Of a stretch of 64,000 nt of DNA, positions 7,556 to 27,600 are shown one piece after another. Position 1 is the first letter of the stretch; every line of letters starts with the position of its first letter. Under the pieces are notes generated by a model that was given only the letters and a program-made list of their open reading frames with translations, did no database searches and was not told where the DNA came from. Origin of the DNA: Actinomycetes bacterium (GTDB taxonomy: Bacteria; Actinomycetota; Acidimicrobiia; Acidimicrobiales; Ilumatobacteraceae). The stretch covers positions 3,168 to 67,167 of the forward strand of contig JANMCE010000123.1 in NCBI GenBank assembly GCA_031360915.1, in the 5' to 3' direction. The position numbers were made by a program, and so were the translations under genes.

Positions 7556-7984
7556 TTACGGGTTGCGGATCTCGAAAACCGGACCCTCACCAAAGCCGGC
7601 CATCTCGGTCTTCACACCGTTAACGGCGGTGTGGCTGACCAGGACGACAAGCTTGTAGACGGTGTCGGTGCTCGGGGGCGGCGGCACGCTGTGAGCGGCC
7701 ACGTTGATGATGGCCGAGTAGTTGTTGCCACCGTTGAGCAGCTGCGTCACGGTAGGGCCAATTTGACCCTCGAAGCCGGCACCGATCGACTCGACCAACG
7801 CCCGCACCGTCCAGGTGCCACCGAGGAAAATCACTCCGGGGCCGGACAGCTGCCAATCCACTCGTACCTGAAAGCCGGTGTCCGTGTCGATGACGCGGCT
7901 CGGCATACCTGCCGGATCAATGAGCGTGACCGCGGTAAGCGTGGCGTCAACGTTCATGACCGGTACATCAAAAGTAAGCGACAT
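7556..7984 (-). CDS. Giant-operon gene 7: small (142 aa) hypothetical protein, beta-rich
   Basis: AAGGAG lies 7 nt upstream of ATG 7984. Strong GC3 coding bias and no signal peptide. TAA stop followed by a hairpin. Confidence 0.75.
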   Translation of the reverse strand: MSLTFDVPVMNVDATLTAVTLIDPAGMPSRVIDTDTGFQVRVDWQLSGPGVIFLGGTWTVRALVESIGAGFEGQIGPTVTQLLNGGNNYSAIINVAAHSVPPPPSTDTVYKLVVLVSHTAVNGVKTEMAGFGEGPVFEIRNP

Positions 7985-8185: not shown

Positions 8186-11100
8186 TCAGGTGGCGCGGCG
8201 GACCGAACGGGCGGCGAGGTGGTGGTCGGTACGGACGAGGGTGGCGATGTCGGTGTCGACAGTGACCAGCGGGTCTGTGGTGCTGTGGGTCACCGCGAGT
8301 AGCAGCCAACCGGGGTCGGGCCAGGCAGGGCCGGCCAGATCAACTCCAAAGGACACCACCTGAGGTGAGAGCGGCTCGAGGCTGCGGCGGGAGCGGCGGG
8401 CTGGTTGGGTTGGGTCGAGATAACTCCAGTCCGCGTTTAGCCAGGCTCCCGTCGGGGCGCCCGAGGTGATATCGGCCACCAGACTGGCGGTCCAGCTAGC
8501 AGGCAGCGCGGCCAAACCGGCCAACTGGTGATCGCTGGAGAACGGTGTCTTCAGCACCGTGACCCACGAGTCGGCCGCTGCTACCGGTCGCCAATGACGG
8601 GAATGTGCGGCGACAAAAACCAACATCGGGCCATCCCCGGCGACGCACGATGCGGCCTTGCCGGCTCGGGTATCGGGCTCGTCCTGCAAGAAGGCGGTGA
8701 GGTCGGTGAAGTCGGGCGGGTCATGATCGAAGGGCAGCCGGTTGCCGGCCAGTAGCACTTTCCAGATGGCCTCGGGGGTGGGATTCGCTCCCAACAGAAT
8801 GGCGAGATCCTTCAATTCTGCGGCCAATGCGGCTGCCGTCCCCGGACCCCAGGTGCCATCAACTCCCACGGCGCGACCGGCAGCTCGCAGGGCCGATTGC
8901 ACCAGCCAGATGTGGAACTGTGACAACTTCGGCCCGATGGGGATGCCCGGAAACGGTGGCGGATCAGCGGTCGAGCTACGCCAGACCCGTACGTCCGGCG
9001 AACCATCCAACGGCAACGCGCCCCCGGTGAACGGATGGACGGCACCCGAGTCCGGGATGGCGCGACGGGCCGAATCGAACTTATGGGTGCGCAGATAGAG
9101 CGTTGGTCCTTGCGTGACGTCATCGAGCGCTAACTCCCACACACCGCGCGCCGAGGTTGCCGCTCGCAACAGCCGGTTCCCGGGGTCGGTCGCAGTGTTG
9201 CTGTAAATGGTGAGATCGGTAACGGCAGCTTCGGGCAGCCCGTCGGCGTAGTGGGTCCATACCCACGTGGGGGGCTGGCCGACACCGAAATCGCCAACGC
9301 CTTTCCACACCCCAGTGCTGCTGCCGGCGTACACAACGTTGCGATGGTCGGGGTCGACCACAAGGGTATAGATCGGTCCCGACATCTGCAGGCCTGTCGA
9401 AATCCAGTCGCTGACGCCGTTGTACCACCAGACGTTCACGGCCGTCGGCCCGACCCCTACCTTGCCGTTGGATGGGAGCGTGCCGACGTACATCGACCCG
9501 GTGGCGGGTTGATGCGGCGCGAACGAGATGGCCTGCAGGTCGGTCGGGATCTGGGGCGCCGGCGTGTCAGTGAAGTCGATAAAGAAGAAGACGTCAGGTT
9601 GCGACCATTTCCCCGCCGTTCGCTTCAAGTGGTAGAGGTTCGCGAGACCCAGCACGTACAGCGAATCCTTGTCGGCCCACTTCACCATTCGGATCACATC
9701 GTCGAGATGATCCTGTTTTCGATTGGTGCCACCCGCGTAGGGGTCGGTGCCTGTTGGCAGAGTCACCCAGCCCGAGCGCGACCCCTTCTTCGCTTGGAGC
9801 CCGTCGTCGGTGTACCAGATCCGATCGGTGCCCACGGCGAGCTGCGTGGTCGACGCGGCGGCGTCGCCGATGATGCCCATCGAGCTGTAGAAGCCAGCCG
9901 CCTCCCTTTCCTTGGTTCGTACCCCGAGCGCCCATGTGAAGTCGGCCAGCGACAGGGAGAACGAGGGATTGGAGAACAGATCGAAATAGGTGAAGGTCTG
10001 CCCGGCATTCAACGAACGCCACCAACTCCCGTTGGTGTACTGGTGATACATGCGGCTTGGGGTTCGCGGGTCGATGGCCACACCACCGCCATCTCCGCCG
10101 TCGGCTTGCCGCCACGCCTCAGCGCTGAGGCGAAGCACCGTGCCGTTGTCCTGGGTGCCGGAAAGCACCACACCGTCGTGGGTGGCATGGTGGGCCAGGT
10201 AGGTCATTTCGGTGACGGCCAGGCCGCTGTTGACCGACCGGAAGGTGTGGCGATCCCCATCGTGACTGGAACGGAACACACCCCCGTCGCATCCAACCCA
10301 CAGCACCGTTGGCAGGCCGGGCAGGAAACCAGGGACCCACGCCAGCACCTGCACGTCGGGATGCACACCGAGGCCGACCCACCCGGGTCGATTTGGTGGC
10401 CCCGCCTGCGTAGTGCCGATGAACCGGTACGTGGCGCCGTCCTTGCGCACCCGGCCGGTGTACAGCGCGGCGTTGTCGGCGCCGGTTGGATCCTCGAGGC
10501 CCTGACCACCAACCGCAACGGTGTCATCCGTATCGGGACCGAGCGTCGGGCTGGCCGCGATAGCCATGTCATAGGACGCCTGCTTGCCAAAGATGTCCTT
10601 GTCGACGCCACGAACGACGTCGGCGTGGGTGCCCTCGATCCGCCAGAGTCGGGGCCCTTCGGCCACCGCGTAGAGAACCGGGTTGGCGATGCCCTTGCGG
10701 GCCGCCGCCAGAGTCATGCGACCGATACCGATCTTGGGTTCGATGCCCTTGGCTGACTTAGGGAGTGTGATGTTCTGCCAGGAGCCGGCATCGCCCGTGA
10801 GGCTGAACCGTAGGATCCCGCTGCGCTCCGAGGCGTACAGGATCTGGGTACCGACTCCAGTTGAAACCACCAGCACGTCGGCGAGACCCACGTTGGTGGC
10901 CGGCTTCTTCGCCCCTGTTGGAAGGGTATCGACCCGATGCCAGGTGGGCGTCGGCGTGGGGTCGCGGCGGTACAGGTCCTCGCCGGTGGCCGCCCATACC
11001 CGCCCGTCAACCACGGTATCGACGGCCAATCGAGCGACGAAGGTGCCCTCAACCCCCGGTCCGGTCTCAAGCGTCCAGGGGTCGGCATCGGGGCCGCCGT

Positions 11101-11638
11101 TACGCACCTGGTCGACTGGACCGACGGCTCGCCGGATACCGATGCCGCTCATACTGACCTCACCGAAGCCACTGCGGCGCCCCGGCTGCTCACCGGTGGC
11201 CGCGTACACGATATCTTTGGATGCATCGCCGGACGGGTCAAACTGCACCGCGAGGGCACCAATGGCCAGCGCGTCAGCCTCGCGGAGGGTGCCACTGAGA
11301 TCGGGGGTGGAGGCATAGGTATCGAGGCACAGCCAGGTGGCGCCGCCGTCATCGGTGTACCAAACCCCGCCCAGCGCGGCGCCGATGTAGGCCCGCTGCC
11401 CGTCGTCGGAGGCTGCGATAGCCCGCACCCGACCCGAAACGGTGGGCTGCCCGAACCCGGTGCCGCGCACCACGCCGACCGGTCCGAGGGGCACCCATTG
11501 ATCGGCGGCGGCATCGTTGCCGTCTGGCTGATTGTTGCGCACGACCGTGCCCGACGCCTCGACCTTCACCCGGCGGGGCCGACCGGGGGGCGCCTCACTT
11601 TCGCTGGAGAAGCGACCGGAAATCCAGGCGTTCGTCAT
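8186..11638 (-). CDS. Giant-operon gene 6: BNR/Asp-box beta-propeller protein with a C-terminal peptidoglycan-binding-like module (1150 aa)
   Basis: ATG 11638 overlaps the TGA of gene 5 (ATGA); the track ORF start at 11788 adds an Arg-rich overlap. Asp-box-like YTDDGGATW, FRSSHDGDRHTF and WRSLNAGQTF, plus GTQDNG and GGDGGGVAIDP. FHIWLVQSALRAAGRAVGVDGTWGPGTAAALA resembles PG_binding_1. Confidence 0.8.
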   Translation of the reverse strand: MTNAWISGRFSSESEAPPGRPRRVKVEASGTVVRNNQPDGNDAAADQWVPLGPVGVVRGTGFGQPTVSGRVRAIAASDDGQRAYIGAALGGVWYTDDGGATWLCLDTYASTPDLSGTLREADALAIGALAVQFDPSGDASKDIVYAATGEQPGRRSGFGEVSMSGIGIRRAVGPVDQVRNGGPDADPWTLETGPGVEGTFVARLAVDTVVDGRVWAATGEDLYRRDPTPTPTWHRVDTLPTGAKKPATNVGLADVLVVSTGVGTQILYASERSGILRFSLTGDAGSWQNITLPKSAKGIEPKIGIGRMTLAAARKGIANPVLYAVAEGPRLWRIEGTHADVVRGVDKDIFGKQASYDMAIAASPTLGPDTDDTVAVGGQGLEDPTGADNAALYTGRVRKDGATYRFIGTTQAGPPNRPGWVGLGVHPDVQVLAWVPGFLPGLPTVLWVGCDGGVFRSSHDGDRHTFRSVNSGLAVTEMTYLAHHATHDGVVLSGTQDNGTVLRLSAEAWRQADGGDGGGVAIDPRTPSRMYHQYTNGSWWRSLNAGQTFTYFDLFSNPSFSLSLADFTWALGVRTKEREAAGFYSSMGIIGDAAASTTQLAVGTDRIWYTDDGLQAKKGSRSGWVTLPTGTDPYAGGTNRKQDHLDDVIRMVKWADKDSLYVLGLANLYHLKRTAGKWSQPDVFFFIDFTDTPAPQIPTDLQAISFAPHQPATGSMYVGTLPSNGKVGVGPTAVNVWWYNGVSDWISTGLQMSGPIYTLVVDPDHRNVVYAGSSTGVWKGVGDFGVGQPPTWVWTHYADGLPEAAVTDLTIYSNTATDPGNRLLRAATSARGVWELALDDVTQGPTLYLRTHKFDSARRAIPDSGAVHPFTGGALPLDGSPDVRVWRSSTADPPPFPGIPIGPKLSQFHIWLVQSALRAAGRAVGVDGTWGPGTAAALAAELKDLAILLGANPTPEAIWKVLLAGNRLPFDHDPPDFTDLTAFLQDEPDTRAGKAASCVAGDGPMLVFVAAHSRHWRPVAAADSWVTVLKTPFSSDHQLAGLAALPASWTASLVADITSGAPTGAWLNADWSYLDPTQPARRSRRSLEPLSPQVVSFGVDLAGPAWPDPGWLLLAVTHSTTDPLVTVDTDIATLVRTDHHLAARSVRRAT

Positions 11639-14600
11639 GCCCCACCGCCCGAACCGCCAGCGCCCGACCCGCCCGGGCCGCCGGTGTCGTCGACCGGCAG
11701 CACCCGAATCCAGCCCTCCTGCAGGTTGTGGGGTTGCTCGGGCAACAGCGCGGTCTGGCTCGAGGCCAAGATGGCGTCGTCTTTCCACGTGAGCGGTGTG
11801 TCGCGCCGGGTGAAGACCTGCTTGTCACCTAACCCGGTCACCCGTGGCATGCGGATGCCCGTCGGGTCGACCAGCACCGGACCCACCCGGAACGAGGGGG
11901 ACAGTTTGGTGAGCGTGTCGTGGAACCAGTCCCGGGCCAGGGCCAGCGACTTGCGAGGCAGCACCCCGCTGGTGGCGTGCACCTTGCCACCCGGTGCCAT
12001 CAGCAGAGTGAGGCGCACCGTCTGCTCGGGACGAACCGCCACCGAGGATTCGGCCGCGATGTATGGATGGGTAATGGCCCGGGCGTCCGGGGGCAGTTGC
12101 GAGCCGCGTCCGAACACCGAGAGTTGGCCCTGCATCCGCCCGCTGCGACGGGCCAGACTGCGAATCTCGGGAGCGACGGCCTGCACCCGGGAGTAGTCGT
12201 CGTCGACGGCGTAGGCCAATAAGCCGTCGTCGGTGCGGGTGAGTTCGCCCAGCCGGACCGCGATGGCCTTGGAACGTAGGTCCCGGTAGGCGGCGGCTCG
12301 GGCGTCGCGATCCGCCTGGGAGGGATAAGACAGCTCGTCAAGGTCGTCCAGCACATCGAGGCGCAGGGTGGCGCGCACCACCGCGATGGGTCGACCGACC
12401 AGACCGGCCACCGCACCCGAGCCGATCGAACCAAGGGGGTCGGTGGTCCACAGTGTCGTGTCGATGGCTCGCAACAACGCGCTCAGCGCACTGTCGGGCT
12501 GGGTGTCGGCGTCGGGGCCGTTGCGCACCGTGGCGTCCGTCGAGATGAGGCCGACCGCTAGGCGGGTGAGGTGGCGGGCCCCCGGATCGGGGCCGGGGTC
12601 GGGTGGCCCGCCGATGGGACCAGTACGGCCAGGTGCCCCCTCCCACATCACCGTGCCGGTGATGGGGTCATGCATGAGTTGGCCGAGCGAGAACCCCGAC
12701 GCATCGAAGAATTCGAGTGCCTCATCGACATGATCGGGCAGCAGCCAGCCGGCCACCGGGCTGATAGCCAGGTCCGGATGTTGCTGGTCGATACGGGCAT
12801 CGACTTCGACGGTGCCGTCGGCCGGGCGAGGGTCGACGAAGCGGAAGTTCAGGCGGGCCGGACGCTGCCACCGAGGGGCCAGCGTGAGGGTCGGCGCACC
12901 GTCGGGATGATCGATCGTGTCGGCCATCTCGGCCCGAGCCAATACCGCGTCGGGCACGTCGAGGAAGCGCCCGAACGCATCCACGATACGCAGCCGCTTC
13001 ACGGTGGCTTTCCCGCCGGCCAGCAGCAACGGCAGACCCAACGCCCGCGGTTTGGCGTCACCGTTGCCGTCGCTGTCCTGCAGGGTGCCATCGGTCTTGA
13101 TGCGCAGGCGGGTGGCATCGTGCGGATCTAGGCCCAACAGCACTTCGCGCACCCCGCGCAACGACGCGGCCACCACGTCGGTACCCGGGGCTGCGGCGAC
13201 GGCAGCGGCCAATTCGCCCTCGCGGCGGTCGCTGACCTGGCCCACCTTGGCCACGTCGCGTTGGCGTTCCTCCTCCAGCCACTTTGTGATTTCGGCGGCC
13301 AACGCCGGCGCAGCCGAGCCGGTCAAAAGCGACCGGCCGACCACAGCCACGGACCTGCTGCCGGTGGCCGTCAGGCCGTCTTTGGGCGCGGTGTCGATCT
13401 GGCCAAGATCCCAGCCATCGAGGCGGTCATCGACGGCCAGATCGAGTTCCCAGTCGCACCACAACGGAACCCAGGCCTGAGCCCACCTTGTCCAACCGAC
13501 CGGCGACATGTCCTCCCCCTGACCGACCGACGCGGGTCGAAGCGCGTCCCGCACGTGGTGGTCGAGCACGGGTTCGATCTCCCGGCCCGTCGGATGAAAG
13601 GCGTAGCGCAAGGTCATCTCGGCCCGCACCCGATTGCCGACGGCCTGCAACGGCAACCGCTGACCCTCGGCCGACCAGATCGAAATTTCCTGCCAGCGGT
13701 ACGGATCGAACAACACCGCCTCCTGCAGCAGCAGATCCATTTCCGGCGGGATTGACCCGGAGCCGAACGACCGCAGCCCAGGAGGCACATGCCGGCTAGC
13801 CACCACGCCTTCCAGACCTCGGGCGATGCCACTGGGCAACCGGCAGCCGAGGAGCTGCCCCGGGTCATGGTTGCGGTCGCCGCCGTGGCGCAACGAACGG
13901 TGCGCGTGTCGCACCAGCACCGTCAGGTCGGCCGGGACGAAGTAGCGCGGCTGGCTGGCCGGAACGTCACGAAACGATCGGGGAGGGCGCGGCGCCTTCA
14001 CCTGACCATAACGCTGGGAAAGATCGGCAGCCTGCACCGCTGCGTAGTCCCGGGACACCAATTCCACTCGATGCTTGAGACGAGCCGCGCCCAACTGCGA
14101 CCCCGTGGACGGCGCAATGGGTGAGGCTGTGGGGGCCGGTCGGTCGGTGTCGGTCGGCGTCATGATGTCGCCTTGGGCGATGCGGTCGGGCGTGGCTTTC
14201 ACCCCGGCCGAGGTGCCCACGAAGGTGGACCCGTGACGGTATTCGTCGATGGCGACCAAGCCGCCGGCCGCGTCGATGGTGGGTAGGAGACCACCAGCGA
14301 ACGCGGCCAGGACTTGCTCAGACGATCGGCGCTGTTCATTGGTGCCGTCGGCCAACATGGCGGCCAGCGCCGCCGACGGGGTGGGCCCGACGGCGATTTC
14401 GACATCATCGACGTTGGGTGCCAAGTCACGTTCCACCTTCAACCGCACCCCGAATACCGCGCCGTGTACCACCGTCTGGCGAGGGGCGTTCGGCTTGTCG
14501 TGGACGAACAGCGTCGCGTCATCCTGGAGGAATCGGGACGACGCCATCATCACCGACGCAGCGGGATCGGCGGTGACCGGGTCAGCCGTGAGCCGGTCGA

Positions 14601-15543
14601 CCGAAGCCGCACGGGCCGCATATCCCGCGCCCAACGGGGCGGCCGACTTCAGTCGCAGGGCACCCCGGCGGGCGGCACCACTACCCCGCTGGTCGGCATC
14701 ATCGGTGACGCCTTCGGGCACCGGAGCCAACCAACCCAGCCATTGGGTGCGGTCCTTGTACCGACCGAGCGAGGTGACGTCATGCAGCGGATCGATGGCC
14801 GGATCCGACCACCATCCCGCCACCAGGTACGACACCCGAAGCGAGTCGAGCGTTGTCGGGTCGAGATCGGCCAGGTCATCGTGGAACGCGAATCGGTCGA
14901 TGACTGCGTCGTAGGTGGCCGCCCAGGCCACGTCGCCGCCCGCCACCGCCGTCAAGGTTTCTCGGCTGATGTAGCGCCTGCCACTCGCTCCCGTTCGGGT
15001 GGTGCCGGGCGCCGGCGCCGGCAGCGGACCAGGCTCGCGCCAGCCGAGCAGGTCCTGGTGATCACCACGGTCGGCTTCCAACACCCACGAACGCACCACC
15101 TGGCTGCCGTGCACCAACCGGCCTACCACCCAGCGATCCGGCAGCGGGGGCAATCCGAGCGGGTTCCCGGCCGGGTGGGCCGTGTCGCGGGTCTTGCCGG
15201 CATCGCCCCGGGTGAGGCCATCGGGCATTGCCCAGTGCAGGTGGATGCCGGCGGCGCGACCGGTGGGGGCTCCGAAGGGTTCAGGCGGTATCGGCATCAC
15301 CTCGGCCCTCTCGGTACCGGGCACGGTGATCGGCACAACCGTTTCGGTCGGCACGATCGCCACGGTGTCGCCCGGCCCGACGACCAAGGCCTGTACGTCC
15401 ATGGGCACGACCAGGCGGGTGTCTCGGGGCAGGTGGCTGTCCCAGGTGCCGATCGCCGAGATCGAGAGATCGGTTCGTACCAGCGCGGCGTAGCGGGGTG
15501 AGGCCACCACTTTCTTGAGCAGTTCGGGGTCGACACCAGCCAT
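11635..15543 (-). CDS. Giant-operon gene 5: hypothetical 1302-aa protein
   Basis: The ATG lies 3 nt after the gene 4 stop, with AGGAGG (15551-15556) inside the last codons of gene 4. The frame is uninterrupted and ends in a Gly-rich tail (GGPGGSGAGGSGGGA). No recognised catalytic or NTPase motif. Confidence 0.8.
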   Translation of the reverse strand: MAGVDPELLKKVVASPRYAALVRTDLSISAIGTWDSHLPRDTRLVVPMDVQALVVGPGDTVAIVPTETVVPITVPGTERAEVMPIPPEPFGAPTGRAAGIHLHWAMPDGLTRGDAGKTRDTAHPAGNPLGLPPLPDRWVVGRLVHGSQVVRSWVLEADRGDHQDLLGWREPGPLPAPAPGTTRTGASGRRYISRETLTAVAGGDVAWAATYDAVIDRFAFHDDLADLDPTTLDSLRVSYLVAGWWSDPAIDPLHDVTSLGRYKDRTQWLGWLAPVPEGVTDDADQRGSGAARRGALRLKSAAPLGAGYAARAASVDRLTADPVTADPAASVMMASSRFLQDDATLFVHDKPNAPRQTVVHGAVFGVRLKVERDLAPNVDDVEIAVGPTPSAALAAMLADGTNEQRRSSEQVLAAFAGGLLPTIDAAGGLVAIDEYRHGSTFVGTSAGVKATPDRIAQGDIMTPTDTDRPAPTASPIAPSTGSQLGAARLKHRVELVSRDYAAVQAADLSQRYGQVKAPRPPRSFRDVPASQPRYFVPADLTVLVRHAHRSLRHGGDRNHDPGQLLGCRLPSGIARGLEGVVASRHVPPGLRSFGSGSIPPEMDLLLQEAVLFDPYRWQEISIWSAEGQRLPLQAVGNRVRAEMTLRYAFHPTGREIEPVLDHHVRDALRPASVGQGEDMSPVGWTRWAQAWVPLWCDWELDLAVDDRLDGWDLGQIDTAPKDGLTATGSRSVAVVGRSLLTGSAAPALAAEITKWLEEERQRDVAKVGQVSDRREGELAAAVAAAPGTDVVAASLRGVREVLLGLDPHDATRLRIKTDGTLQDSDGNGDAKPRALGLPLLLAGGKATVKRLRIVDAFGRFLDVPDAVLARAEMADTIDHPDGAPTLTLAPRWQRPARLNFRFVDPRPADGTVEVDARIDQQHPDLAISPVAGWLLPDHVDEALEFFDASGFSLGQLMHDPITGTVMWEGAPGRTGPIGGPPDPGPDPGARHLTRLAVGLISTDATVRNGPDADTQPDSALSALLRAIDTTLWTTDPLGSIGSGAVAGLVGRPIAVVRATLRLDVLDDLDELSYPSQADRDARAAAYRDLRSKAIAVRLGELTRTDDGLLAYAVDDDYSRVQAVAPEIRSLARRSGRMQGQLSVFGRGSQLPPDARAITHPYIAAESSVAVRPEQTVRLTLLMAPGGKVHATSGVLPRKSLALARDWFHDTLTKLSPSFRVGPVLVDPTGIRMPRVTGLGDKQVFTRRDTPLTWKDDAILASSQTALLPEQPHNLQEGWIRVLPVDDTGGPGGSGAGGSGGGA

Positions 15544-15546
15544 TGG

Positions 15547-16581
15547 TCAGCCTCCTTGGTTCCACTGCCGCAACACCGAGATTCCCACGGTGGGTTTGAA
15601 CATTTGGGCGAACGTCAACACCTGACCACCCGAAACGGTTCCCTTGTCGGGGTCGCCGAAGACCTGACGGAACGGGAATTGCAGCATCTCGAGGGCGAAT
15701 TCGGCGCTCTGCACTCCGGCGCCCTCAAAGTCGTTGACGTGGGTCGCGGTTTGCTGGGTGATGCGGCGAGCCAATTCGGTGATGTGAACCACACCGGGGG
15801 CCGAACGCCGGAACGGCACCTTCTTGGCCAGATCACCCGGCGGGCGCGGCTGTTGTTTGTCGAGGCGAACGGCTGTGAGCACGTTACGCAACGGGATGGT
15901 GGCGCCGGTGGTACCCGTGGCGTTCTCGGGCAGATCGACCCCGAATTGAATGCCCGATCGAGGTTCCTCGATATGCACCACTTCGGGGACACCATCGAAC
16001 AGACAGAGCAGCACGGCCGGCGCAAGTCGTTCCAGACGCAACAATCGGATGCGATGCGGGTCGTCCTCGTTCACCAAGGCGTCATCCGCACCGACTTCGG
16101 CCGAGTAGGCCCGCACATGCAGATTCGGCCATCCCGACACGGCGCGGGAGCGAAGAATGAACCCCGTGATGGCGTGGGCTTCAGCCACCTCGGGACCGTT
16201 CTCGCCACCCACCACGCGCACTTGGCGCTCGGCCGAATCGACCTCATTGCGGATGATGGTATGCAGGCTCTGCACCTGCTCGCGATCAAGGGTAGTGATG
16301 GTGCCGACCGACAACGCACCCTGCACCATGGCGTCGGTCCAGTCCCGATCGACGTAGAAGAACCGGATGGATTCAGGCGGCAAAAGTTCACTGTCGGGCA
16401 CCAGATGCGCGAACGGGACACCCTCGAGCAGGCGGACGCGGGCCAACCAGGTGCGCACCAAATCGGGCAGCGCACCCCCGACCGGTTCGGCCCCCACCAC
16501 GCCCACCCGATGATCAACGGCTTGGGCCGCGGCGGTGAAGACCAGCGGGTTGGTGACGAAGTGGGCGTACGTGCTGGCCAT
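15547..16581 (-). CDS. Giant-operon gene 4: hypothetical 344-aa protein
   Basis: ATG 16581 shares one nt with the gene 3 TGA (TGATG). Strong coding bias and no recognised motif. Confidence 0.8.
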   Translation of the reverse strand: MASTYAHFVTNPLVFTAAAQAVDHRVGVVGAEPVGGALPDLVRTWLARVRLLEGVPFAHLVPDSELLPPESIRFFYVDRDWTDAMVQGALSVGTITTLDREQVQSLHTIIRNEVDSAERQVRVVGGENGPEVAEAHAITGFILRSRAVSGWPNLHVRAYSAEVGADDALVNEDDPHRIRLLRLERLAPAVLLCLFDGVPEVVHIEEPRSGIQFGVDLPENATGTTGATIPLRNVLTAVRLDKQQPRPPGDLAKKVPFRRSAPGVVHITELARRITQQTATHVNDFEGAGVQSAEFALEMLQFPFRQVFGDPDKGTVSGGQVLTFAQMFKPTVGISVLRQWNQGG

Positions 16582-18659
16582 CAGTTCCCCTCCCGCAACA
16601 AGATGTCGAGCGCATCAGGCTCAACGGTTCCACCCGGGTCCTGCGGCAGCACCGAGCCGGGCGGGGCCGGGTCGGGCAGCACCGAGCCGGGCAGCAGGCC
16701 GGGGGGTCGGCCGATACCGCGACTGAAGGCCGCCCGGGCCACATCGGTGGCGGCCTCGAGCACCGCCTGGCGCAGGGGCCCCAGCAGATCCTGCGCCTTT
16801 TCCGCCAGATCACGGAACTGGTCGTCATTGCGTGCGACCGGCACCTCGACCGAGCCGAGTCGACGCTGCGCCTCGGGGAAGATCAGGTCCTTCACCATCT
16901 CGGGGCGCAGACCGAAGCCAGTCGCCAGCAGTTCGATCGGATCGTTGTCATCGATCCCTTCGATCGGCACGCCGGGTTCGATCAACGGCCGTGTCCGACC
17001 GAGCCGAGCGGCGCCATTAGACCCGAGGTTGGCGATGACGTCGTGGCTCACCCGGGCTGCGAAGCCACGGGTTACGTCGTCGAACCCGAGGTGATTGAGC
17101 CCGGCGTGGCCCGCGGCCATGGTGGCCCGGTGAGACTCGTCGAACCCGTCCTTGCGCCAGGTCAAGAGGGCGGCGACCACGCTCGGCTCGGCCAGCGCCA
17201 GCAGTCGACCGATCTCGAACCCGGTGGCAGCGCCGAGGTTTTCCCGACCGTCGGGGCCAACTCGGCGAAGCTGGTCACTGGTGTGGGCCAAGGGCAGCGG
17301 CTTGCCCGCCTCAGGTTCCTGACGCACTGTCGGGCGCGGTACCAATGGACCGCGATACCAGACGGTGGTCGGTTCTCCTTCCCGGGTGACGTGGTCAAGC
17401 GATATGTGGCCGGTGTCGAGCACCTCGGGCGGCTTTCGAGTGGCGGGGGGCGGTGCCTTCTCCCCCGGCTTGGTAGGGGCAATATCGGGCAGGGTCCCGA
17501 TCATGCCGACGTCGAGACCCTGCATCAGGGACTGGAAGTCGCCCGCTCCGACACAGGTGAACTCCCAGTGAGCCAGCACGGGAAAGGTGTACTTGGCGAT
17601 GAGCGGCGCAATGATCGACAGGTCGATGTTGTGCATCGCACCGACCAGATGGGCGGTGTAGGTCGCGGTGGCCGTGGTACCCGAACTTGGATTAACCGGT
17701 TGGGTATGCGGGTTCGACCAGGCATCTACCGAGGTGAACGCCCGGACCGCGGTGACCCCTCGCTCGACCACCGCGGCCTCGACCACTGAGGCCACGCCGG
17801 GCATAGCATCGCTAGCGCTGATGCCAAGCCAGGCGGGTACGTCCGACTGGTAGGCCACGTCGGGATAGTGACCGGCGTACGAGAGCTGGTCGATGTGGGC
17901 GATCACGTCCGGGTACACGTAGATCTTGTCGAACTGATCATCGAACAACGCCTCGTGCGTGCGCAGCTTGTCGTACTGGCCTTCCACCGAGATCAGGCAG
18001 GCCCGATACCGCACGCCCGGCTGCGGCAGACGGTTGCCGATGACCACCGCCATCCACCCGTCGTCGTCACCGAGGGCCAACTCGGTATCGGCCAGGTCGA
18101 CCTCGCGTACATGGGCGAGCAGCGGGAGTTCCGCCTGCGACGGGAAGACCTCATCCACCACGTCCTGGGTGACGATGATGCGATCGCCCCGATCGACGTC
18201 GTTACGGCCCTCAAGCACCACCCCCGGCGTCACACATTCGGCCACCGGTTTGCCCGACTCAAAGGTGCACTCGCCGTCGGCCAGCAGCACCAGTGCCATC
18301 CACGGCACTAAGCGCTGCGCGCTGTTCGGGTCCATCGACACCGCCTTGCCGTCGAGTTCTCGTTCCCACGGCAAGGTGCGCCGCTTCAAGACGATCTGGG
18401 GGAGGCGGGAACTGAACGCGCCCTGCGACGCGTTCGGCGGGAAGGTGGAAAGCACCTGGTCGGGGGGCAACAGAAACCGCGGGGCGGTCACTTCGATGTG
18501 ATAGTCGAGTGGGTCGATGTCGACGTCGAGCGCACCTCCCGGGTTCACGGTTTGGGTGTCGCTGTGGATGTGTTGGCGCACCTCGACCACGTACGGCCCG
18601 GCGGGCACATCGGGGATGGCGTTGCTGTGCAGTACGAACTTGCCCGGAGTGATGGTCAC
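16581..18659 (-). CDS. Giant-operon gene 3: hypothetical ~692-aa protein
   Basis: GTG 18659 overlaps the gene 2 TGA (GTGA); the track ORF start at 18713 would overlap gene 2 by 58 nt. The C-terminal PGSVLP duplication is encoded by an 18-nt direct repeat near 16636-16700. Confidence 0.8.
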   Translation of the reverse strand: MTITPGKFVLHSNAIPDVPAGPYVVEVRQHIHSDTQTVNPGGALDVDIDPLDYHIEVTAPRFLLPPDQVLSTFPPNASQGAFSSRLPQIVLKRRTLPWERELDGKAVSMDPNSAQRLVPWMALVLLADGECTFESGKPVAECVTPGVVLEGRNDVDRGDRIIVTQDVVDEVFPSQAELPLLAHVREVDLADTELALGDDDGWMAVVIGNRLPQPGVRYRACLISVEGQYDKLRTHEALFDDQFDKIYVYPDVIAHIDQLSYAGHYPDVAYQSDVPAWLGISASDAMPGVASVVEAAVVERGVTAVRAFTSVDAWSNPHTQPVNPSSGTTATATYTAHLVGAMHNIDLSIIAPLIAKYTFPVLAHWEFTCVGAGDFQSLMQGLDVGMIGTLPDIAPTKPGEKAPPPATRKPPEVLDTGHISLDHVTREGEPTTVWYRGPLVPRPTVRQEPEAGKPLPLAHTSDQLRRVGPDGRENLGAATGFEIGRLLALAEPSVVAALLTWRKDGFDESHRATMAAGHAGLNHLGFDDVTRGFAARVSHDVIANLGSNGAARLGRTRPLIEPGVPIEGIDDNDPIELLATGFGLRPEMVKDLIFPEAQRRLGSVEVPVARNDDQFRDLAEKAQDLLGPLRQAVLEAATDVARAAFSRGIGRPPGLLPGSVLPDPAPPGSVLPQDPGGTVEPDALDILLREGN

Positions 18660-21600
18660 GGCCGAACCTCCTGGAAGCGGTCTTGTTGTGGGCCGTTGTG
18701 GGGCGGGAGCCACCGGATGTGGGTAACGCCCTGACTATCGGCGACCAGGTTGGCGAGCAGACCGTCGAAGCCCCTGGCCGCCAACTGGCGGGCCAGTTCG
18801 TCGGCCGACACCGGCGCTCCCAGCACACCCGACAGGTGGGTGTGTTCCCCGCTCGCCACGCTCACCTGCACGGGCACGGAGCGGCCGGTCTCGTCGCGAT
18901 CCGGTTCCACCGAGTACACGCCGAAGGTACCCGATCCGGAGACCACGACGTGGGCGGGCACAGGTTCACCATCGGCCCCCAGGGTGCGGGTGGCGCCGAC
19001 CATGCCGAGTTCGAGTCCGTCGGCCCGACCGTCACCGGTGGGATCCGCTTCCTCCATCGCCACCGCGATGGCGGTCACCCCGGCCGGCAATGAAGTGGTC
19101 GTCACCGAGTATCCGGCCACGGCGACGCCGGCCGTCGTGAACGCCACCGTCACCTCCTGCCCACCCCTTCGGGTGCGCAACGCCGAACTCCACAGGGTCG
19201 AGCCGGGCGCGGCGACAGCGAAGGTGCCGATCTGCGCCACGCGAGTGGTGCTGTGCCAGCCTGCGATGCCGTCGAGCGTGCCGCCACCGCCCAGCACCAT
19301 CACCGTCCACGTCTTGGATGGCAGCACGACAAACCCCTGACGAACCCGCACGTCACGCACGACGGCACCGACGGTGTCGAGGGCGATGACCCGAGCCGGG
19401 AGTCCACCCGAGATTTCGAGACTGTGCCGCTGATCGGCGACGTCGTTGTCGGCGTTGGCGAAGGTGAAAATGGTCGCCTCGCCGGGCAGCAGATCGAATC
19501 CGTCCGAGGCCAGATTTCGGGTCAGGCCGTCGAGTCGTTCGGCGACGAAGGGCCGTTGGCCGGGTTGGCGTCGCAACTCGCCGCCGCTGCCAGCCCGTCC
19601 GGTAAACGCAGTTGTACCGCCAATCACCGTGGTGTCGGTCGACTGGCCGGGCGTGCCGGTGAGCACGAGGCGTGCTGCGACTCGCACATCACCGGCGGCC
19701 AGCACATCGGCGATGCGACGGGGCGTGACCCGAGGGACGTCGCCGGCCTGCGACACAGACGTTCGTTGCGGCGCGGCGACGGCCCGGCTCGGCGTGGATG
19801 CGAGCAGCCCATCGACCCGCGGTGGGACCGGTACCAGATCGGGCTCCACCGGACCCCCAGGGGGCGGACGTTGGGCGACGGCGGCGAACGGCAGTGGGTC
19901 GGTCGCCATGGCAAAGGTCAGCGGCAACAATTGCGGCGGCGCGGCCCGACCGTTGCGGAACGACAACGCCCCCAAGGGGGTGAACTGTGAGCCTTTGGCC
20001 CCAGCCACCAACCACTCATGCGCCTGGGCCAGCACATCGAGCGATGCATTCGGCGTCGCCGCCGCCAAGGCGGCGGCCGCCGTCACGTCGGCCGCCCGTT
20101 CGGCCCGCACGGCATGCTCGGCCAGGAACGGCAACTGGTGGCGCTTGCCGATCTCGACCTGGTGGTAATCGATCGGCACCGTGCCCGGCGCGATGGCCGG
20201 GGCCCCGATGAGGGAAACCGAGTTCCCGCTCAGGATGGTCTCGCCGGTGGGTACCGGCTTGTCACTGCGGTTCGGGCCCCATACCCCTTTCGGGAAGGCC
20301 CCGGTCACCACAAATGCATCGAGGTTGCCCACATGATTCGTCCCGTCGGCGCGGTTGATGATGCCGATACGCAGCGACGATTTCACCGACGCCCGATGCA
20401 TAGGGCCGATGGCTAGTGGCTGACCCCCCTGTACTGGCACCGAACCGCTGGTTACCACCTCGGAGGCCGCGGCCGTGGTGGTCACCATCAGCACGAACTC
20501 GGGCAGGATCAACACCGGGTCGCTTGCGCTGGCCCCAGTGGGGGGCTTGTTGGCCGTGGCCGGATTCGGCGGCAGCTGCCCCTTGCCGACAATGGCCGTG
20601 AGTACCCGGGCGCCATCCTGGCGCAGGTACTTGTCGTAGAACGCGCCCCACTCGAGCACCGGCGTGGAGTTGTCACCCTCATCGCCGAAGGAAATGGAGG
20701 CGCTGGTGACACCGAGGTCGATGGTGGCCCGACCATGGAAGTCGGGTCCGGCCAGATACACATCGGCATGCAGGTGGATGCTGATGGTGATGCGGATGTG
20801 ACCGAACCAGCCGAGGTCGATGTCGATGGTGATGCCCGCGCCCAGTTCGGCGTAGGCGGTGACTTCGAAGTGGAACGGGTCGAAATAGATAATCCCGTCG
20901 GCGCCGAGCCGCAGGTACGCCCACAACGGACCCAGGGTGAGCGCCGCCTCGAATCGGGTGCCGGCCATGATTGCCTCAGAGGTGAGCGCGAAATAGCTCT
21001 CGCCCTTGATCACCAGGACGCTGCCGATGCTCCAAACGAAGCCGAGTCGGGGCACCACCGGGTAGCCCTTGCGCTGGAACGACGGGTGATATCCGCCCAG
21101 GGTCAGCACGAACTCGCCGGCGCCGGGCCCGCCGTTGGGCTGGTTCTTGAACCACATCACGTAAGCGAATCCGCCGGTGAGTCGGCAGTCGGGCGTGAGC
21201 AGCCACGAGTTATCGGTGAGCTGCGCCTGTATCCACAGCACGCCGTCGCGGGTGGAGAAACGCACAAGGAGCGCCAGTTCGATCTGCACCAGCGGGAACG
21301 CGGTGGTGGGCAACGCCGCTCGGGCCAGACCGAGCAGGTTCACGTCGAGCCCGTCGGCAATCAGGATGCCGATCACCGCGATGCCATCCACCAGAGCGAA
21401 CGACGTGAACGAAATACCGGCCGCGAACCAGAACGCACCCCGTTGCGGTGGGAAATAGCTGCGAAGTTCGTCGAGCGCACCCATGGGGTCAGTGGTGGCT
21501 TTGGCGTTCGGGTCGAGGGCCTTCAGCAACGGGTACGACGGGAACTTGTTCATGTCGCTGGGCAGGAGCAGCAGACGGTTGACACCTACCCCGGCACCCA

Positions 21601-24600
21601 ACCCCGTGACGAAGAAGGCGGGCGGCCCGCCGATCGGGGCCACCAGCGCACCGAAAATGAACAGCGACGTGAAGTCGCCGTGGGTATCGGTAATGACGGC
21701 GTACCCGCCGTAGGCCGAGATGCCGTACACCCCGAATCGGATACTGATCATGCCGACGTAATCGGGTGCGCTGCCCGGCGCTCGCCGCAGGCCGCCGGTG
21801 ATCACGACGCCGCCGGTATCCGACGACACGGCGAGTCCGGCCAGCCCGACTTCCCAGGCCAGCGGGCTGTAGATGGGCGGATCGCTGGGCACTTGTGGCC
21901 ACCGCACACCGACGGCCAGATCGTCGACGGCGACGGTGAGGCCGAGCAGCGACACCTTGCCGTCTACCATCACCCGGGCCGCGATCACCTGGTTGCCGGA
22001 CTTGCTGACCCCGAAGCCGACCTGCTCGATATACACCGGACCGAAGCCGCGTTGGATGGTGACCCACCACGGCCCCTCGCCGGTCCCGGCCCGCAAGTCG
22101 ACCTTGACCGGACCACCCTTGTGATGCTGCACGGCCAGGGCAGGGCTGAACTTGGGGGCCGGTTTCTCTGCCCCACTCGAGCTGTCTCGCAGCACCCCGC
22201 TGGCCACCTTGTTGTTGCTGTCCGACGCCGAACCGACCGGTACGGCCAACCCGGTCAGTTCGAGCTGACCGCCGGCACCGGTGACGCCGCTCGTGGCATC
22301 GATGGCGAGGTGCCCGTGGACGGCCATGGAATCGACGGTGAACAGGGTATTCAGCAGCGGGCCGCTCTTGCTGCCGATCCGAATCCCGATACCGTCGATG
22401 GCGATCCCGAAGAAGACCTCGGGCGTGCCGCCTTTGACCCGTAAGACCTCGACCAGCAGCCCCTCGGCGGGGGTCCCCTCGATCCAGGTGCCATCCACCT
22501 CGATATCGACAGTGGTTTCGCCGTCGGCCAGGTTGAAGCGTCCGCCCGGCTCGAGGGAGATGGCGAGACCGTATACGTCACCATTGCCACCGTCGACGCG
22601 TTTGGCCAGGGCCACGGTAAGGGGATCGATGTTGACTTTGGGCGTGTGGGCGGCGATGTTGGCGGCCAACTGCAGGAGGCGTTTCCAGAGTTGCGCGGTG
22701 TCGAGCACACCTGTGTCGAACGTCGACCCGGTGAAGACGACCCCGGCAAGCAGCTGTTTAATGGTGGCCCCACCGAACACCACTCGGGCAAGCAGATCGT
22801 CGACCTCCTTCTGAGCTAGAGCCAAGTCGACCAGCACCGGTACCAGCAGATCGACGAGCACCTCGGGAAGCGACCCACCGGTGGTCTCGAGCGCGAACGT
22901 GGGCGACGAGGTGAGATGCAATACTCCGGCTACCTGCTTGACGCCATCGAGGGCCAGCCCGACCGCCAGGCGCGGACCACCTGCCGCGTTGCTGCCGATG
23001 GCGATCTCGGCAAGTGGCGCCAGCCGGAGGGAACCGAAGGCCACCGCCGAGGCCGGCGCAATGGCGAACCGGGTGCGACCCTCGACCAGACCGGTGTGAT
23101 CGACCGTCAGTCCGGCACCAATCAATGCGCCGGTAAACGGTGACAGACCATCGATTGTGGCCGCGATGCGAGCCCCGGCGGCCAGCGGGCCACTCACCGG
23201 AACGCTCACCCGCACTGACCCGGCGACGCCGCCATTGAGATAGGTGAGCACCAGTTCGTCACCGACACGGGTGAGGGTGACGCCGGTCGGCAGGGATCCC
23301 GCCACCACCGCGGCGAGGGCATCGAGCGCCGTCGGCAGCGCGGTACGCAGACGTTGGGCCAGTTGTCCGACCGGGTCGGCCACCAGTTGGGCCAGTTGGG
23401 CGCTGTCGAATTTGGACGTCACCCGTAGCCCGGTGGCGTCACCGAAGCCGGCGAGGGCCACGCCGACCTCATGGCCGAGGCTGCCGTTCGGGATGCCGAC
23501 CACGGCATCGAGTACGTACGGCAGGGCGTAGGTGACCGCCGCATGGGCCACGTCGCCGACCGCACCCAGACCGGGGCCGCGGGGCAATAACTGCAGGTCG
23601 ATGTGGCTGGCCGGCATGATCAGTCGGGCGGCCACACCGGTCGGGGCCATGTCAACCACCAGCCGCCCAGCGGTGGTGAGCGGTGAGCCGTCGGGGAGGG
23701 CCAACACCAACCGGGCGTCGGGCCGCGCCACCAATCCGGGGCCGCCCAGCGATACCCCCACGCTACCGGCCAGTCGCAGGCCGGTAGCGTCGATGGGCTG
23801 GTCGATACCGAGCGCCAGGTGCGCCCGTCCCGCGGTGGTGCCGGCGGTGAGGGCGAGGCCGAAGGGCAGCGCCCATGTTCCGGGGCCGCTGCTCACCCCG
23901 AGCAGACCACCGACCGCGTCGGTGAGCGACGCCAGGCGGGCTCCGTCGAACGCCTCGGCCACGGCCAGCAGTCCGGCGAACCAGCGCTGGGGGTCGATGA
24001 ATAGGCCGAGTGGGGGCCGCACTCGAATGGCGTCGCCGGAGCCGACCAGCACTCCGAGGGCTCGCAGGGTGGGATCGAGGCGGTCTCGGGCGGCGCTGGG
24101 GGCTCCGCGCAACTCTGCCACCAGACCACCGACCAATTCGGCCGGGACCAGGGCGACCAGCGTGCGGGCCAGGCGGGCCGTGTCCGGGGTGGGCAGAAGT
24201 TCGATCGAGCCGGGGCCGGCATCGGGCCAGATCAGTTGCACCGTCCACGGCGCGCCAGACACCTCCAGCACTGCGCCGGAGGATCCGAACGCCACCCCGA
24301 ACTGGCCGCCGATCGAACCATCAAGCTTGCGTTCCAGTCGTCCGGTGAGCGTGGCCCCGGCGGCAAAGGCCAAGCCCGAGCCGGTCGTCGCGACCGCCAG
24401 CGCGCCGGTGGCCAGATCGGCGGAAAGTCGCACGCCATCCATCTCGACGGCGAATGCCGAGGGGGTGGATGGATCGGGTGCCACGCCGCCAAGCAGGTCG
24501 GTGAGCGCGGCAGCCACCCTCGGGGCCCGCACCGCGGTGCGCAGGTCGGCCAGCAGCCCCGACGGGTCAACGAGCAATCGGCGGATACCTTCCACCGAAA

Positions 24601-27600
24601 AACCCACCGGCCCACCAACGACGGCCGGCATACTCGGGTCTAGCAGGCCAATCACATCGAGCAAGGCCACCAGCTGGCGGATCGGCCCACTGGCAGGAAG
24701 GGGCCCGAGAGACGATGCCAAACGCCCGATCAGTACCTGCGCCTCGGGCATCAGGGGCAAACCGTTCTGCAGGTCGGTGTGGCTGATCACCCATCGGCGT
24801 CGGCTGACGCCCAACGCCTCGGCCTCATGCAGCACGATGCGGGCCGAGACGGACAGTCCGGTGGTGAAGGGAGCGTCGAGCTGGATTTCGGCCCGTCGCA
24901 ACGACGGTTGCCGAGACGCCGAGCCGGGCCGAGCCGGGTCGGGGCCACCCGCCAGCCAGCCGCCGACCCGGTCCACCACGATGCGGGCCCGGAAACCTGC
25001 ACCCGACTGATCCGGTGACCCGAGACCCGCCAACGTCGCCGCCAATTCCACCCGTAGTCGCACCGCACCCGGCGCGGCATCGGGCGCAATCACCATGTTC
25101 AGCCCGCCATGCAGCACGTCGATGCCCACCTCAACATCAGGATCGGCACCAGGATCATCCGCCGGCGATGACGTCTCGAAGACGTCTTGTAGGCCGCGCA
25201 CGATCACGCCGGTGATGGCCTTGGAGATGCCGGTGGCGTCCATCACCCCACGGACGCAATGGACATCGACCGTGCCCGGAATCGTCGGCAACGAGAGCGG
25301 TGGCGATAGTTCGGCCAGTGGCGAGGGGCCGTGCTTCCACACCAGATCGAGGGCGCCGACCATGGCCCGACCGGCCATGACCGCGTCGTGTTCGGGTTGA
25401 TCGACGTCGACGGCGGGCAGCAACCGGGCCAGAAGTTGGTACGCACCGGCGGCTGGTTGGGTCTCAACGACATCGAGGCCGATGCCGCCATGGGGCGTGC
25501 CAACGGTGACCAGATGGGTCACACCGGCGACGGTGGCCGCGACCCATGCCGCAGCATGCCCGGCTGCACCGTGGGCCACCAGCATCACCGGGCCACCTCC
25601 GCCCACCCGCGTGACGACGGCGGCGACGGCACGGGCCAGTCGCGCCGTCTGACGGGCCGCGCCGTCATCGGCACCGTTGGTGGCCGCATCGGCCCGACTG
25701 GCCAGCAGCACCAACCACGGACCGTCCTGGGCATCGAGACGGGAGACATCGAGCGCGTCGGGCGACAACCCAGCGGCGCGCAGATCGAGCACGTGATCCG
25801 ACGCCACCCCCGGCCATTCGGTAGGTCCGAGCGGGCCAGCAACGAACACCGTTCCGGCACCGACCGCCGGCAGGCCCAGGGCCGAAAGGTCGAGCGCCTC
25901 CACCAACGCGCCGTGAGCGACACGGGTCAGATCATGGTTGATGGCCCCCGGGATGGTGGCCGACGCGGACGAAACCAGACCGTCGGAGCCCAGCCAGCGG
26001 GCCGCCAGTGCCGTGAACCCGTCGTTGAGATCATCTCGGGCGGCGAGCAGGTCGGCCAACACCGAGCTGTGCACTGACGCGTGGCGCAGCGCCGCGGCCA
26101 GGCGCTCCGCTGGTGGCTCGGCTACCAAGCCATCATCCGCGGTGATCCAACTCAGCAGGTCGCCGGGCCGGAACACGTCGACATTGAGATCCGGCTCGTG
26201 TGGAGACCACAGCAGCAGCTCGATGCGCCGGGCCGCGTCGGCCGCCAGCGCCGACAGCGGCAAGGTGAACGGATCGTGCGGCACCCCGCGACCGAGCAGG
26301 CGGCCGATGGCTGTGTCGGGATCGAGCGGGCCGAGCAAGGTCAGAGCCAGCCGCTCGGCCACCGCCGCCAGCCGGCCATCCTGGGCCAAACCGCCGACCA
26401 GATCGGCGACCGTACCGATGGGATCGGTGACCAGGTCTTCCAGGCTGAGGCGCACCTGGAGGCCGCGTTCGTCGCGCTCCTCCCAGCGGAACAGGCCGAT
26501 CAGTTCGTCCAACCACGGGCGCTTGAGCCGGCGCAGTAGGTTGGCCAGCAGTCGTTCGAGCACCAGCCATGGCACGTCGCCGGTGAAGGTGCCGTCGGGG
26601 TGAAGCGTCGGGAGCGCGAACGGCATCGCTTCACCGTCGATGCGAGCAGTGAGCTCATCCAGCACCGGTTCCAGCGTGAAGCCCGCCCCCGTGGCCCACC
26701 CGAAACGCAGGCCGGCGCGGGCCGTCTCGACCGCGGCCGCGTCAGATCCGAGCCGCAGGACACGGCCGTCGTTTCGCTCGAACACCAGCCCGGCGGCGAG
26801 GCTACCGACGGCCTGACCGCCGCTCCCGTCGAGATGGATGCGCACCAGTTCGGCCCGCAGATCCAGGCGGGCGCCGGGCCAACTGGCACCCAACCCGAGC
26901 GCAGCATGGTCGACGGCCAGGCCGAGGTGCAGGGTGGCTGGCGCGCCGTCGGCCCACACCACGACGGCCACATCTCCGGCCAGCGGCAAGCGCCACGGAT
27001 CGACGACGGTGCCCGTGCCCGACACAGCCGAGACTGTCGTGGACACCAAGCCCTGCAGCGCGTCGAGTACTGCGCCGTAGCCCGCGGCGTGGGTTCGGAT
27101 GACCCGATCGTGGTAGCCGACCATGGCACCAACGGGGTTGCCGAGGAAGTCGGGCAGCGTGGTGAGTGTGACCGGCCAGCCGACCTGCCCGGCCGGCGCC
27201 CCTAGTCCCAGCAGCACCTTGACCGCGTCCCCGGCGGCACCGAGGTGAGCGAGCACCAGATCAGCGACGTCGCCCACGACCGCCCCACCCACGTCGGCCA
27301 GCGTGTGGGTGTTGGTGAGATCGAGCACGTCGTAGTGATGGGTGCCGATATCGACATTGTGGGCGGCCAGCACCAAGCCCGGTTTGCGGTCAGCGCCCAG
27401 GGTGAGGCCCAGCTCGAGTGAACCGACCTTGACGCCAGGTGCCGGCGTGGCGCTGTCCAGTAGCCGTTCGCCCTGCTTGCCGACGTGGCCCGCGAGTTGG
27501 ACGGACGGTAGGCCGCGCACGGACGGTGTCGCGCCGACGGTCACTCGCACCAGGGTGGCCGACAGGGCCAGCCGCCCGGACGGGGTGGTACCCGATGCCG

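Follow-up and report, generated by a model that had tools for sequence, protein, structure and literature searches.

Gene 6 lies on the minus strand of a 64,000-nucleotide stretch of DNA (the window) from a member of the Ilumatobacteraceae (assembly GCA_031360915.1, contig JANMCE010000123.1, forward-strand positions 3,168 to 67,167), where it closes a cassette led by a giant DUF6603 protein, the product of gene 2. Most of the gene 6 protein is modeled as a pair of seven-bladed propellers like those of glycoside hydrolase family 74 (GH74). Behind them come a diverged relative of PG_binding_1, the peptidoglycan-binding domain, and an immunoglobulin (Ig)-like beta-sandwich. No export signal was detected in the protein, in its homologues or in the other cassette products. 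We favor, tentatively and with slightly less than even confidence, the view that gene 6 is the wall-engaging terminal subunit of a leaderless cassette complex, one that would reach peptidoglycan through cell lysis or through the action of the giant protein.

Architecture of the gene 6 protein

The frame of gene 6 runs from an ATG at 11638 to a stop codon at 8186-8188. This ATG overlaps the stop codon of gene 5 (the upstream gene, of 1302 residues) in the sequence ATGA, and the two genes are translationally coupled. An earlier GTG, at 11788, was rejected as the start: a start there would create a 150-nucleotide overlap with gene 5 and add no hydrophobic segment, and orthologues begin at MTNxW. 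For structure prediction we used AlphaFold2 (AF2) with an input alignment of 76 homologues, out of 274 found. The modeled sequence was that of the cluster representative, identical to the window's protein except at 3 of 1150 residues; the model reached a predicted local distance difference test score (pLDDT) of 84.1 and a predicted template modeling score (pTM) of 0.89. Across four orthologues (94-86% identity), the ratio of nonsynonymous to synonymous substitution rates (dN/dS) for the whole gene is about 0.10. The gene and its predicted parts are as follows.

8186..11638, minus strand: gene 6 coding sequence, from the list of open reading frames (ORFs); 1150 residues; final conserved gene of the DUF6603 cassette
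11504..11638, minus strand: residues 1-45; N-terminus, predicted to be disordered (pLDDT 32-35) and not hydrophobic; conserved Trp motif (MTNAW...)
10319..11503, minus strand: residues 46-440; predicted first seven-bladed propeller, from AF2 strands, Foldseek and profile matches; sole strict Asp-box, TDDGGATW (residues 95-102)
9059..10318, minus strand: residues 441-860; predicted second seven-bladed propeller; family-invariant GCDGG (D451), GTQDNG (D497) and GDGGG (D516)
8930..9058, minus strand: residues 861-903; linker, with the lowest conservation in gene 6
8744..8929, minus strand: residues 904-965; diverged PG_binding_1-like three-helix module; DGxxGxxT loop kept
8189..8743, minus strand: residues 966-1150; predicted short helix and Ig-like beta-sandwich, a core domain across the family

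In the AF2 model, residues 1-43 are disordered and 56 beta-strands occupy residues 49-848, a number that fits 14 four-stranded blades. We placed the boundary between the propellers at about residue 440, where the blade-1 motif repeats. Foldseek comparison with the PDB returned GH74 enzymes as the top 13 matches (E 4e-20 to 3e-17). The best was the xyloglucanase 2cn2 (E 4e-20, template modeling (TM) score 0.65), followed by 6p2k, 7kn8, 6mgl and 1sqj. A profile of the gene 6 family had its best PDB match in the BNR protein 3b7f (E 2.3e-13) and also matched 2cn2 (E 1.4e-6). A single-sequence search of the PDB with gene 6 gave nothing meaningful, and Pfam gave nothing at E<=0.1, with the BNR and Sortilin models under threshold (Sortilin-Vps10, E 0.12). 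By model and profile, then, about 800 residues of gene 6 are a GH74-like tandem seven-bladed propeller.

An initial annotation, made from the DNA alone, had recognized GH74/Sortilin-like propeller blades. The AF2 model, Foldseek and the family profile bear this out and make it a double propeller. The blade motifs it quoted are all in place (YTDDGGATW at residues 94-102, FRSSHDGDRHTF at 455-466, GTQDNG at 494-499 and WRSLNAGQTF at 540-549), as is its C-terminal motif WLVQSALRAAG...AALA (residues 911-939). We dropped the number of Asp-boxes as evidence for a propeller. One strict box (95-102) and one loose box (542-549) are present, which is not significantly above shuffled sequence (P 0.06-0.12; 0.12 for the strict count alone).

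The catalytic Asp pair of GH74 enzymes, which we take to be D70 and D480 in Xgh74A, stands with one residue at the start of each propeller. We aligned the family hidden Markov model (HMM) with the D70A mutant 2cn3 ('IYARAAIGG' against family 'vYagtAnGG'); this weak alignment (-3 bits) pairs the mutated position with Ala88, which is invariant in the family. One position further on, 58 of 76 sequences have N, 7 have D and 6 have L; the window's protein has Leu. The parallel motif of propeller 2, GCDGG, has an invariant D451, yet a weak local alignment puts it one position away from the catalytic site. Judged by these alignments, gene 6 is probably not a GH74-type enzyme. A cluster of family-invariant residues opens propeller 2 (C450-D451-G-G, Q496-D497-N498-G499 and D516-G-G; window 9992-10318, minus strand; residues 441-549), and this conservation suggests a ligand or metal site.

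The PG_binding_1-like module sits between the propellers and the terminal Ig-like sandwich. In two models (pLDDT around 90) it has helices at residues 907-919, 932-949 and 955-962, and it keeps the hallmark loop DGxxGxxT as VDGTWGPGT. Single-domain searches scored it poorly: PG_binding_3 gave E 0.15 with the whole protein and 0.004 with the excised module (12.7-17.7 bits against a cut-off of 24.6), and a whole-genome search for PF01471 matched nine places, none within gene 6. Family-level comparisons were clearer. The family alignment pairs residues 904-962 with modules of relatives that pass the PF01471 threshold (P0051, E 1.2e-10; P0058; P0040; P0044), and 13 of 35 excised homologous modules match PF01471 individually. 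When a profile of the 35 modules was run against the PDB, the nine best matches were PG_binding_1 proteins, including 1lbu (3e-7), 5tv7, 5nm7, phiKZ gp144 (3bkh) and the endolysin 7rum. Also among the matches was 4nso_A, deposited as 'Effector protein' and presumably the type VI effector VgrG3. With hhalign, 23 modules that, like that of the window's protein, look non-canonical aligned with 22 genuine PF01471 domains, taken from related genomes but unrelated genes, at 86% probability (E 5e-6, 48 of 57 columns). Finally, a phmmer search with the last 251 residues of the window's protein against 1.84 billion representatives retrieved proteins of two to four canonical PG_binding_1 repeats, matched through residues 901-964 by P0141 (E 3.4e-9), P0155, P0157 and P0176 (range E 3.4e-9 to 3e-4).

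Because the family profile, hhalign and phmmer agree, we conclude from sequence comparison that the module is homologous to PG_binding_1. The initial call of such a domain thus holds, at profile level only. Foldseek of the C-terminal model against the PDB and viral structures left the three-helix bundle unmatched, the larger sandwich domain dominating the matches. In the four orthologues, dN/dS of the module is 0.05-0.10 at dS 0.8-1.5, equal to or below that of the propellers. Such strong purifying selection implies that the module is functional and no relic. The end domain (residues 966-1150) is a confidently predicted beta-sandwich (pLDDT 89). Foldseek matched it weakly, at best E 3.8e-3 to Ig-like or arrestin-like folds and at E 4e-3 to domains of phage minor tail proteins. 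The HMM of the end domain matches nearly all relatives, cassette-linked or stand-alone.

Export signals and the N-terminal motif

Signal sequences were called with a Kyte–Doolittle hydrophobicity heuristic (KD12, the 12-residue peak within the N-terminal 70 residues) and motif scans. For the products of genes 1 to 7, KD12 peaks at 0.62-1.97 (0.92 for gene 6), with longest apolar runs of 4-7 residues. None of the seven has a Tat motif, a lipobox or a 19-residue transmembrane-like segment, save for an interrupted stretch in the DUF6603 domain of gene 2. By the same heuristic, a signal-like N-terminus was found in 0 of 120 gene 6 homologues and 0 of 20 stand-alone paralogues. The eight canonical PG_binding_1 proteins of the genome served as a control: in six of them a hydrophobic stretch scoring 2.07-2.80 precedes the domain, and in several it is followed by a lipobox-like Cys. 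These data confirm what had been noted at the outset, that the operon products lack Sec, Tat and lipoprotein signals. Since signals are uniformly absent, in monoderms and diderms alike, any contact of these proteins with peptidoglycan cannot use Sec or Tat.

The initial annotation went further, holding that a propeller joined to a peptidoglycan-binding motif implies an extracytoplasmic location. That step is unsafe. In the same genome, paired PG_binding_1 domains occur in a protein without a leader, and mycobacterial CwlM, which has two peptidoglycan-binding domains and likewise no leader, is cytoplasmic by experiment (PMC4946905).

We also scanned gene 6 for motifs of the type VII secretion system (T7SS), a route raised at the outset. 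WxG triplets occur solely within propeller strands (residues 420, 447 and 778), and the last 40 residues hold no YxxxD/E. To our knowledge, diderm phyla lack T7SS. Given the missing C-terminal motif, and leaderless relatives in many diderm phyla, we set T7SS aside as a general export route.

The disordered N-termini have a feature of their own. A Trp motif is present in 100 of 120 homologues. It is MxxxW in the clade of the window's protein, whereas other clades show MSRY(D/E)WP, and elsewhere it takes the form RxxWF...R. Residues 1-45 of gene 6 show dN/dS of 0.07-0.18. This motif may be a docking or export signal.

The leaderless protein of the same genome mentioned above is encoded on another contig, at C406:18053-19153 (plus strand). 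Its two PG_binding_1 domains are canonical (Pfam E 2.3e-32), and its N-terminal layout is CwlM-like.

The DUF6603 cassette and its relatives

As the last of the six cassette genes, gene 6 follows genes for proteins of ~650, ~330 and ~1300 residues behind a ~3300-residue PF20248 protein, all on the same strand and tightly coupled. One copy of the cassette encodes about 0.7 MDa of protein. The upstream genes in the window are these.

28615..29274, minus strand: gene 1; about 219 residues; overlaps the start of gene 2
18656..28618, minus strand: gene 2; 3320 residues; giant cassette leader with DUF6603/PF20248 (E 4.9e-118); single copy in the genome
16581..18713, minus strand: gene 3; 710 residues; conserved cassette member
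15547..16581, minus strand: gene 4; 344 residues; conserved cassette member
11635..15543, minus strand: gene 5; 1302 residues; coupled partner of gene 6

When all cassette proteins were searched against Pfam, NCBIfam, PHROGs and PADLOC, the only match was DUF6603 on gene 2. Literature searches for DUF6603 and PF20248 found no papers in the library searched.

Relatives of gene 6 number at least 382 (confirmed) among 185,579 one-per-species genomes. We fetched 82 loci for comparison, of which 55 are cassette-linked and 20 stand-alone. The order of genes 2 to 6 is kept at 55 of the 82, in Actinomycetota, Beta-, Gamma- and Alphaproteobacteria, Gemmatimonadota and Acidobacteriota, and overall the cassette preserves its arrangement across at least seven phyla. 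Cultured carriers include Marinobacter flavimaris LMG 23834, Piscinibacter koreensis ID0723, Variovorax sp. RT4R15 and Aliiroseovarius zhejiangensis KCTC 42443. Five genomes with stand-alone paralogues were searched for DUF6603 and gave no match; the window's genome, as positive control, gave E 4.8e-120.

The PG-like module is present in 35 of 55 cassette-linked proteins, from monoderms and diderms, versus 0 of 20 stand-alone ones. Counts by group are 18 of 26 for actinobacterial cassettes, 9 of 11 for Burkholderiales-type cassettes and 5 of 6 for gammaproteobacterial ones. Its position is constant, before the end domain in all carriers, and PF01471 passes the Pfam threshold at that same position in relatives.

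Other add-ons occur on the same scaffold. The closest outgroup clade (P0004, P0006, P0008, P0012 and P0013; 40-43% identity) has an Rv2525c-like glycoside-hydrolase domain behind the same tail, and P0004 occupies the same cassette slot as gene 6. We looked downstream of gene 6 for a decayed Rv2525c-like domain and did not find one. In a Chitinophagales relative, a VanY peptidase whose SxHxxGxAxD and ExWH motifs are intact forms the N-terminal part, and Kelch repeats are added in one further relative.

Two loci with stand-alone genes have unusual layouts. At L041:8621-12949 (plus strand), in a Chitinophagales metagenome-assembled genome, a single frame combines VanY with intact zinc motifs, a run of TLDTP(I/V)S repeats and a double propeller of the stand-alone gene-6-like kind, and has no signal peptide. 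At L083:10001-17541 (plus strand), a contig from a soil metagenome has a tandem pair of gene-6-like propeller genes (1236 and 1123 residues), both stand-alone. No DUF6603 gene is found within 10 kb of this pair, and a gene with TIR and YukD domains lies nearby.

Gene 6 is not a phage protein: none of 50,697 phage records contains a relative, and megaplasmids gave only 3 weak matches. Gene 7 (7556-7984, minus strand), a 142-residue ORF past a 201-nucleotide spacer from gene 6, is not a cassette member. No counterpart adjoins any relative at the 82 loci, the 94% and 88% orthologues included, and in the 88% orthologue its side is occupied by DUF2201/AAA_5 genes on the opposite strand. Lastly, the metagenomic protein P0120 looks like a fusion of the C-terminal 430 residues of a gene 5 homologue to a gene 6 homologue, and its junction keeps the normal gene 6 start motif; we attribute it to an assembly frameshift and do not count it as a sign that the two proteins interact.

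Site of action and comparison with known systems

Because wall modules recur on one scaffold and the PG-like module is under selection, contact with peptidoglycan is the most economical reading of gene 6. The propeller pair would act as a non-catalytic scaffold or a glycan-binding platform, since in propeller 1 an invariant Ala seems to stand where GH74 enzymes have a catalytic Asp. The PG-like module would tether the cassette complex to peptidoglycan, and the Trp motif of the disordered N-terminus would dock the protein to its partners. Protein and complex would arrive independently of Sec, either when the producer lyses or when the giant protein of the cassette breaches the envelope. A parallel for such a route may be found in phages and in type VI secretion, whose leaderless peptidoglycan-binding proteins get to their substrate by machinery of their own; phage endolysins (phiKZ gp144, 5nm7 and 7rum) are leaderless precedents among the PDB matches of the module. 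Holin-dependent export of leaderless proteins is treated in a review (PMC9527704).

Several observations weigh against this reading. Gene 6 itself has no recognizable hydrolase. The window's module lies under every Pfam gathering threshold and has no PF01471 match, and in the family it is dispensable, missing from 13 other cassettes besides all 7 from Alphaproteobacteria. The five genomes with no DUF6603 match have leaderless stand-alone paralogues, which also weakens the early suggestion that the operon encodes its own export route. No exporter, holin or immunity-like gene is conserved within or beside the cassette, nor is any membrane-spanning segment. Family profiles of genes 3, 4 and 5 match nothing in the PDB, so the 'machine' itself is something we infer. 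And a leaderless protein with peptidoglycan-binding domains can work in the cytoplasm, as CwlM does (PMC4946905). A bolder form of the proposal would make the DUF6603 cassette a new Sec-independent machine that crosses or attacks envelopes, with gene 6 as its modular peptidoglycan-docking arm (a slot in which PG-binding, muramidase-like and peptidase domains are swapped) and the Trp motif as an assembly or export signal. We regard this as doubtful.

The chief alternative is that gene 6 and the whole cassette stay in the cytoplasm, where the module would bind soluble muropeptides, wall precursors or another protein, as part of an intracellular sensor or conflict system. Much of the evidence would fit: no signal or transmembrane segment in the cassette proteins or the 120 homologues, no conserved exporter near the cassette, a module that is optional in the family, and two leaderless proteins with paired peptidoglycan-binding domains, one from the same genome and the other CwlM, experimentally cytoplasmic (PMC4946905). 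Yet relatives bear VanY with intact motifs and what appears by sequence to be an Rv2525c-like hydrolase-type domain, and the known substrate of these is the assembled wall. Swappable add-ons on one terminal subunit are, moreover, more typical of targeting or effector arms, and the closest folds belong to extracytoplasmic glycan binders, GH74 enzymes and the periplasmic sensor BT4663. With evidence on both sides, we consider a cytoplasmic cassette unlikely, with a real share of the probability nonetheless.

Two further explanations are less likely than either a wall-engaging or a cytoplasmic gene 6. One holds that gene 6 serves the producer's own exit, binding the wall from inside in the manner of an endolysin, or of a lytic or peptidoglycan-binding subunit of some large envelope machine, and opening or anchoring a passage for the complex, with other cells not targeted. 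That the leaderless peptidoglycan-binding PDB matches are phage endolysins, that sister proteins have hydrolase add-ons and that gene 6 closes the operon would all suit such a role. It is nonetheless improbable: no holin-like gene is conserved, gene 6 has no hydrolase domain and appears not to have kept the GH74 catalytic Asp, the phage records contain no relatives, and 1150 residues with a double propeller are far from an endolysin architecture. The other, to which we assign the smallest share, denies the module any role at the wall and makes gene 6 a structural propeller scaffold, the module being a spacer or protein contact inherited from an ancestor. The PG_binding_1 fold does also serve protein contacts, for example in metalloproteinase pro-domains, the window's module is under the Pfam thresholds, and 20 of 55 cassette-linked relatives and all stand-alone ones do without it. 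Strong purifying selection on the module, its retained DGxxGxxT loop and its co-occurrence with wall enzymes in the family point the other way.

The DUF6603 cassette is present in hundreds of species, and gene 6 alone among its members has recognizable folds, which suggest the cell wall. Should gene 6 indeed act at the wall, its family would represent a new route to peptidoglycan for large proteins that lack a leader. Should it act in the cytoplasm, gene 6 would be a second and much larger case, after CwlM, of peptidoglycan-binding domains reused inside the cell.

Among known systems, GH74 xyloglucanases (Clostridium thermocellum Xgh74A, 2cn2; 6p2k; 7kn8; 1sqj) resemble gene 6 in their tandem seven-bladed propellers, which form a cleft, and in the BNR-type motif of the first blade, with Foldseek TM scores of 0.62-0.65, yet identity is 13-17%. 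These enzymes are secreted with a signal peptide, whereas gene 6 and the 120 homologues have no hydrophobic N-terminus. Gene 6 differs too in its extra PG-like module and Ig-like domain, and in lying in a cassette rather than in a polysaccharide-use context. The PDB entry 3b7f ('Glycosyl hydrolase, BNR repeat'), from structural genomics, shares the blade motif GGvW.s.D.G.sW with the gene 6 family but is a single propeller of 394 residues; its deposited name gives no function, and so it adds no mechanism.

The sensors of Bacteroides hybrid two-component systems (HTCS; BT4663, 4a2l; BT4673, 3va6) have, like gene 6, two propellers followed by an Ig-like domain. Foldseek aligns them with gene 6 over 1120-1160 columns (E 1e-15 to 6e-17) at a low TM score (0.2-0.3). 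Their periplasmic sensor domains bind glycans and are flanked by the membrane helices of a signaling protein, whereas gene 6 has no membrane segment or signaling domain. Phage endolysins (phiKZ gp144, 3bkh/9xps; Burkholderia phage AP3, 5nm7) share with gene 6 a three-helix module of PG_binding_1 type without a Sec or Tat signal. These proteins and 4nso_A are small or come from known injection machines, and they have a clear lytic domain, which gene 6 lacks; unlike them, the gene 6 cassette matches no phage or secretion-system family.

A precedent for leaderless peptidoglycan-binding domains in the cytoplasm is CwlM (Rv3915) of mycobacteria, which has two such domains and no Sec or Tat signal and is cytoplasmic by experiment (PMC4946905). 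Like gene 6, it is actinobacterial. It is, however, a ~400-residue amidase homologue that regulates MurA, with no propellers and no giant-protein cassette. CwlM is also, on our reading of PMC4946905, a conserved housekeeping gene, whereas the gene 6 cassette is horizontally scattered.

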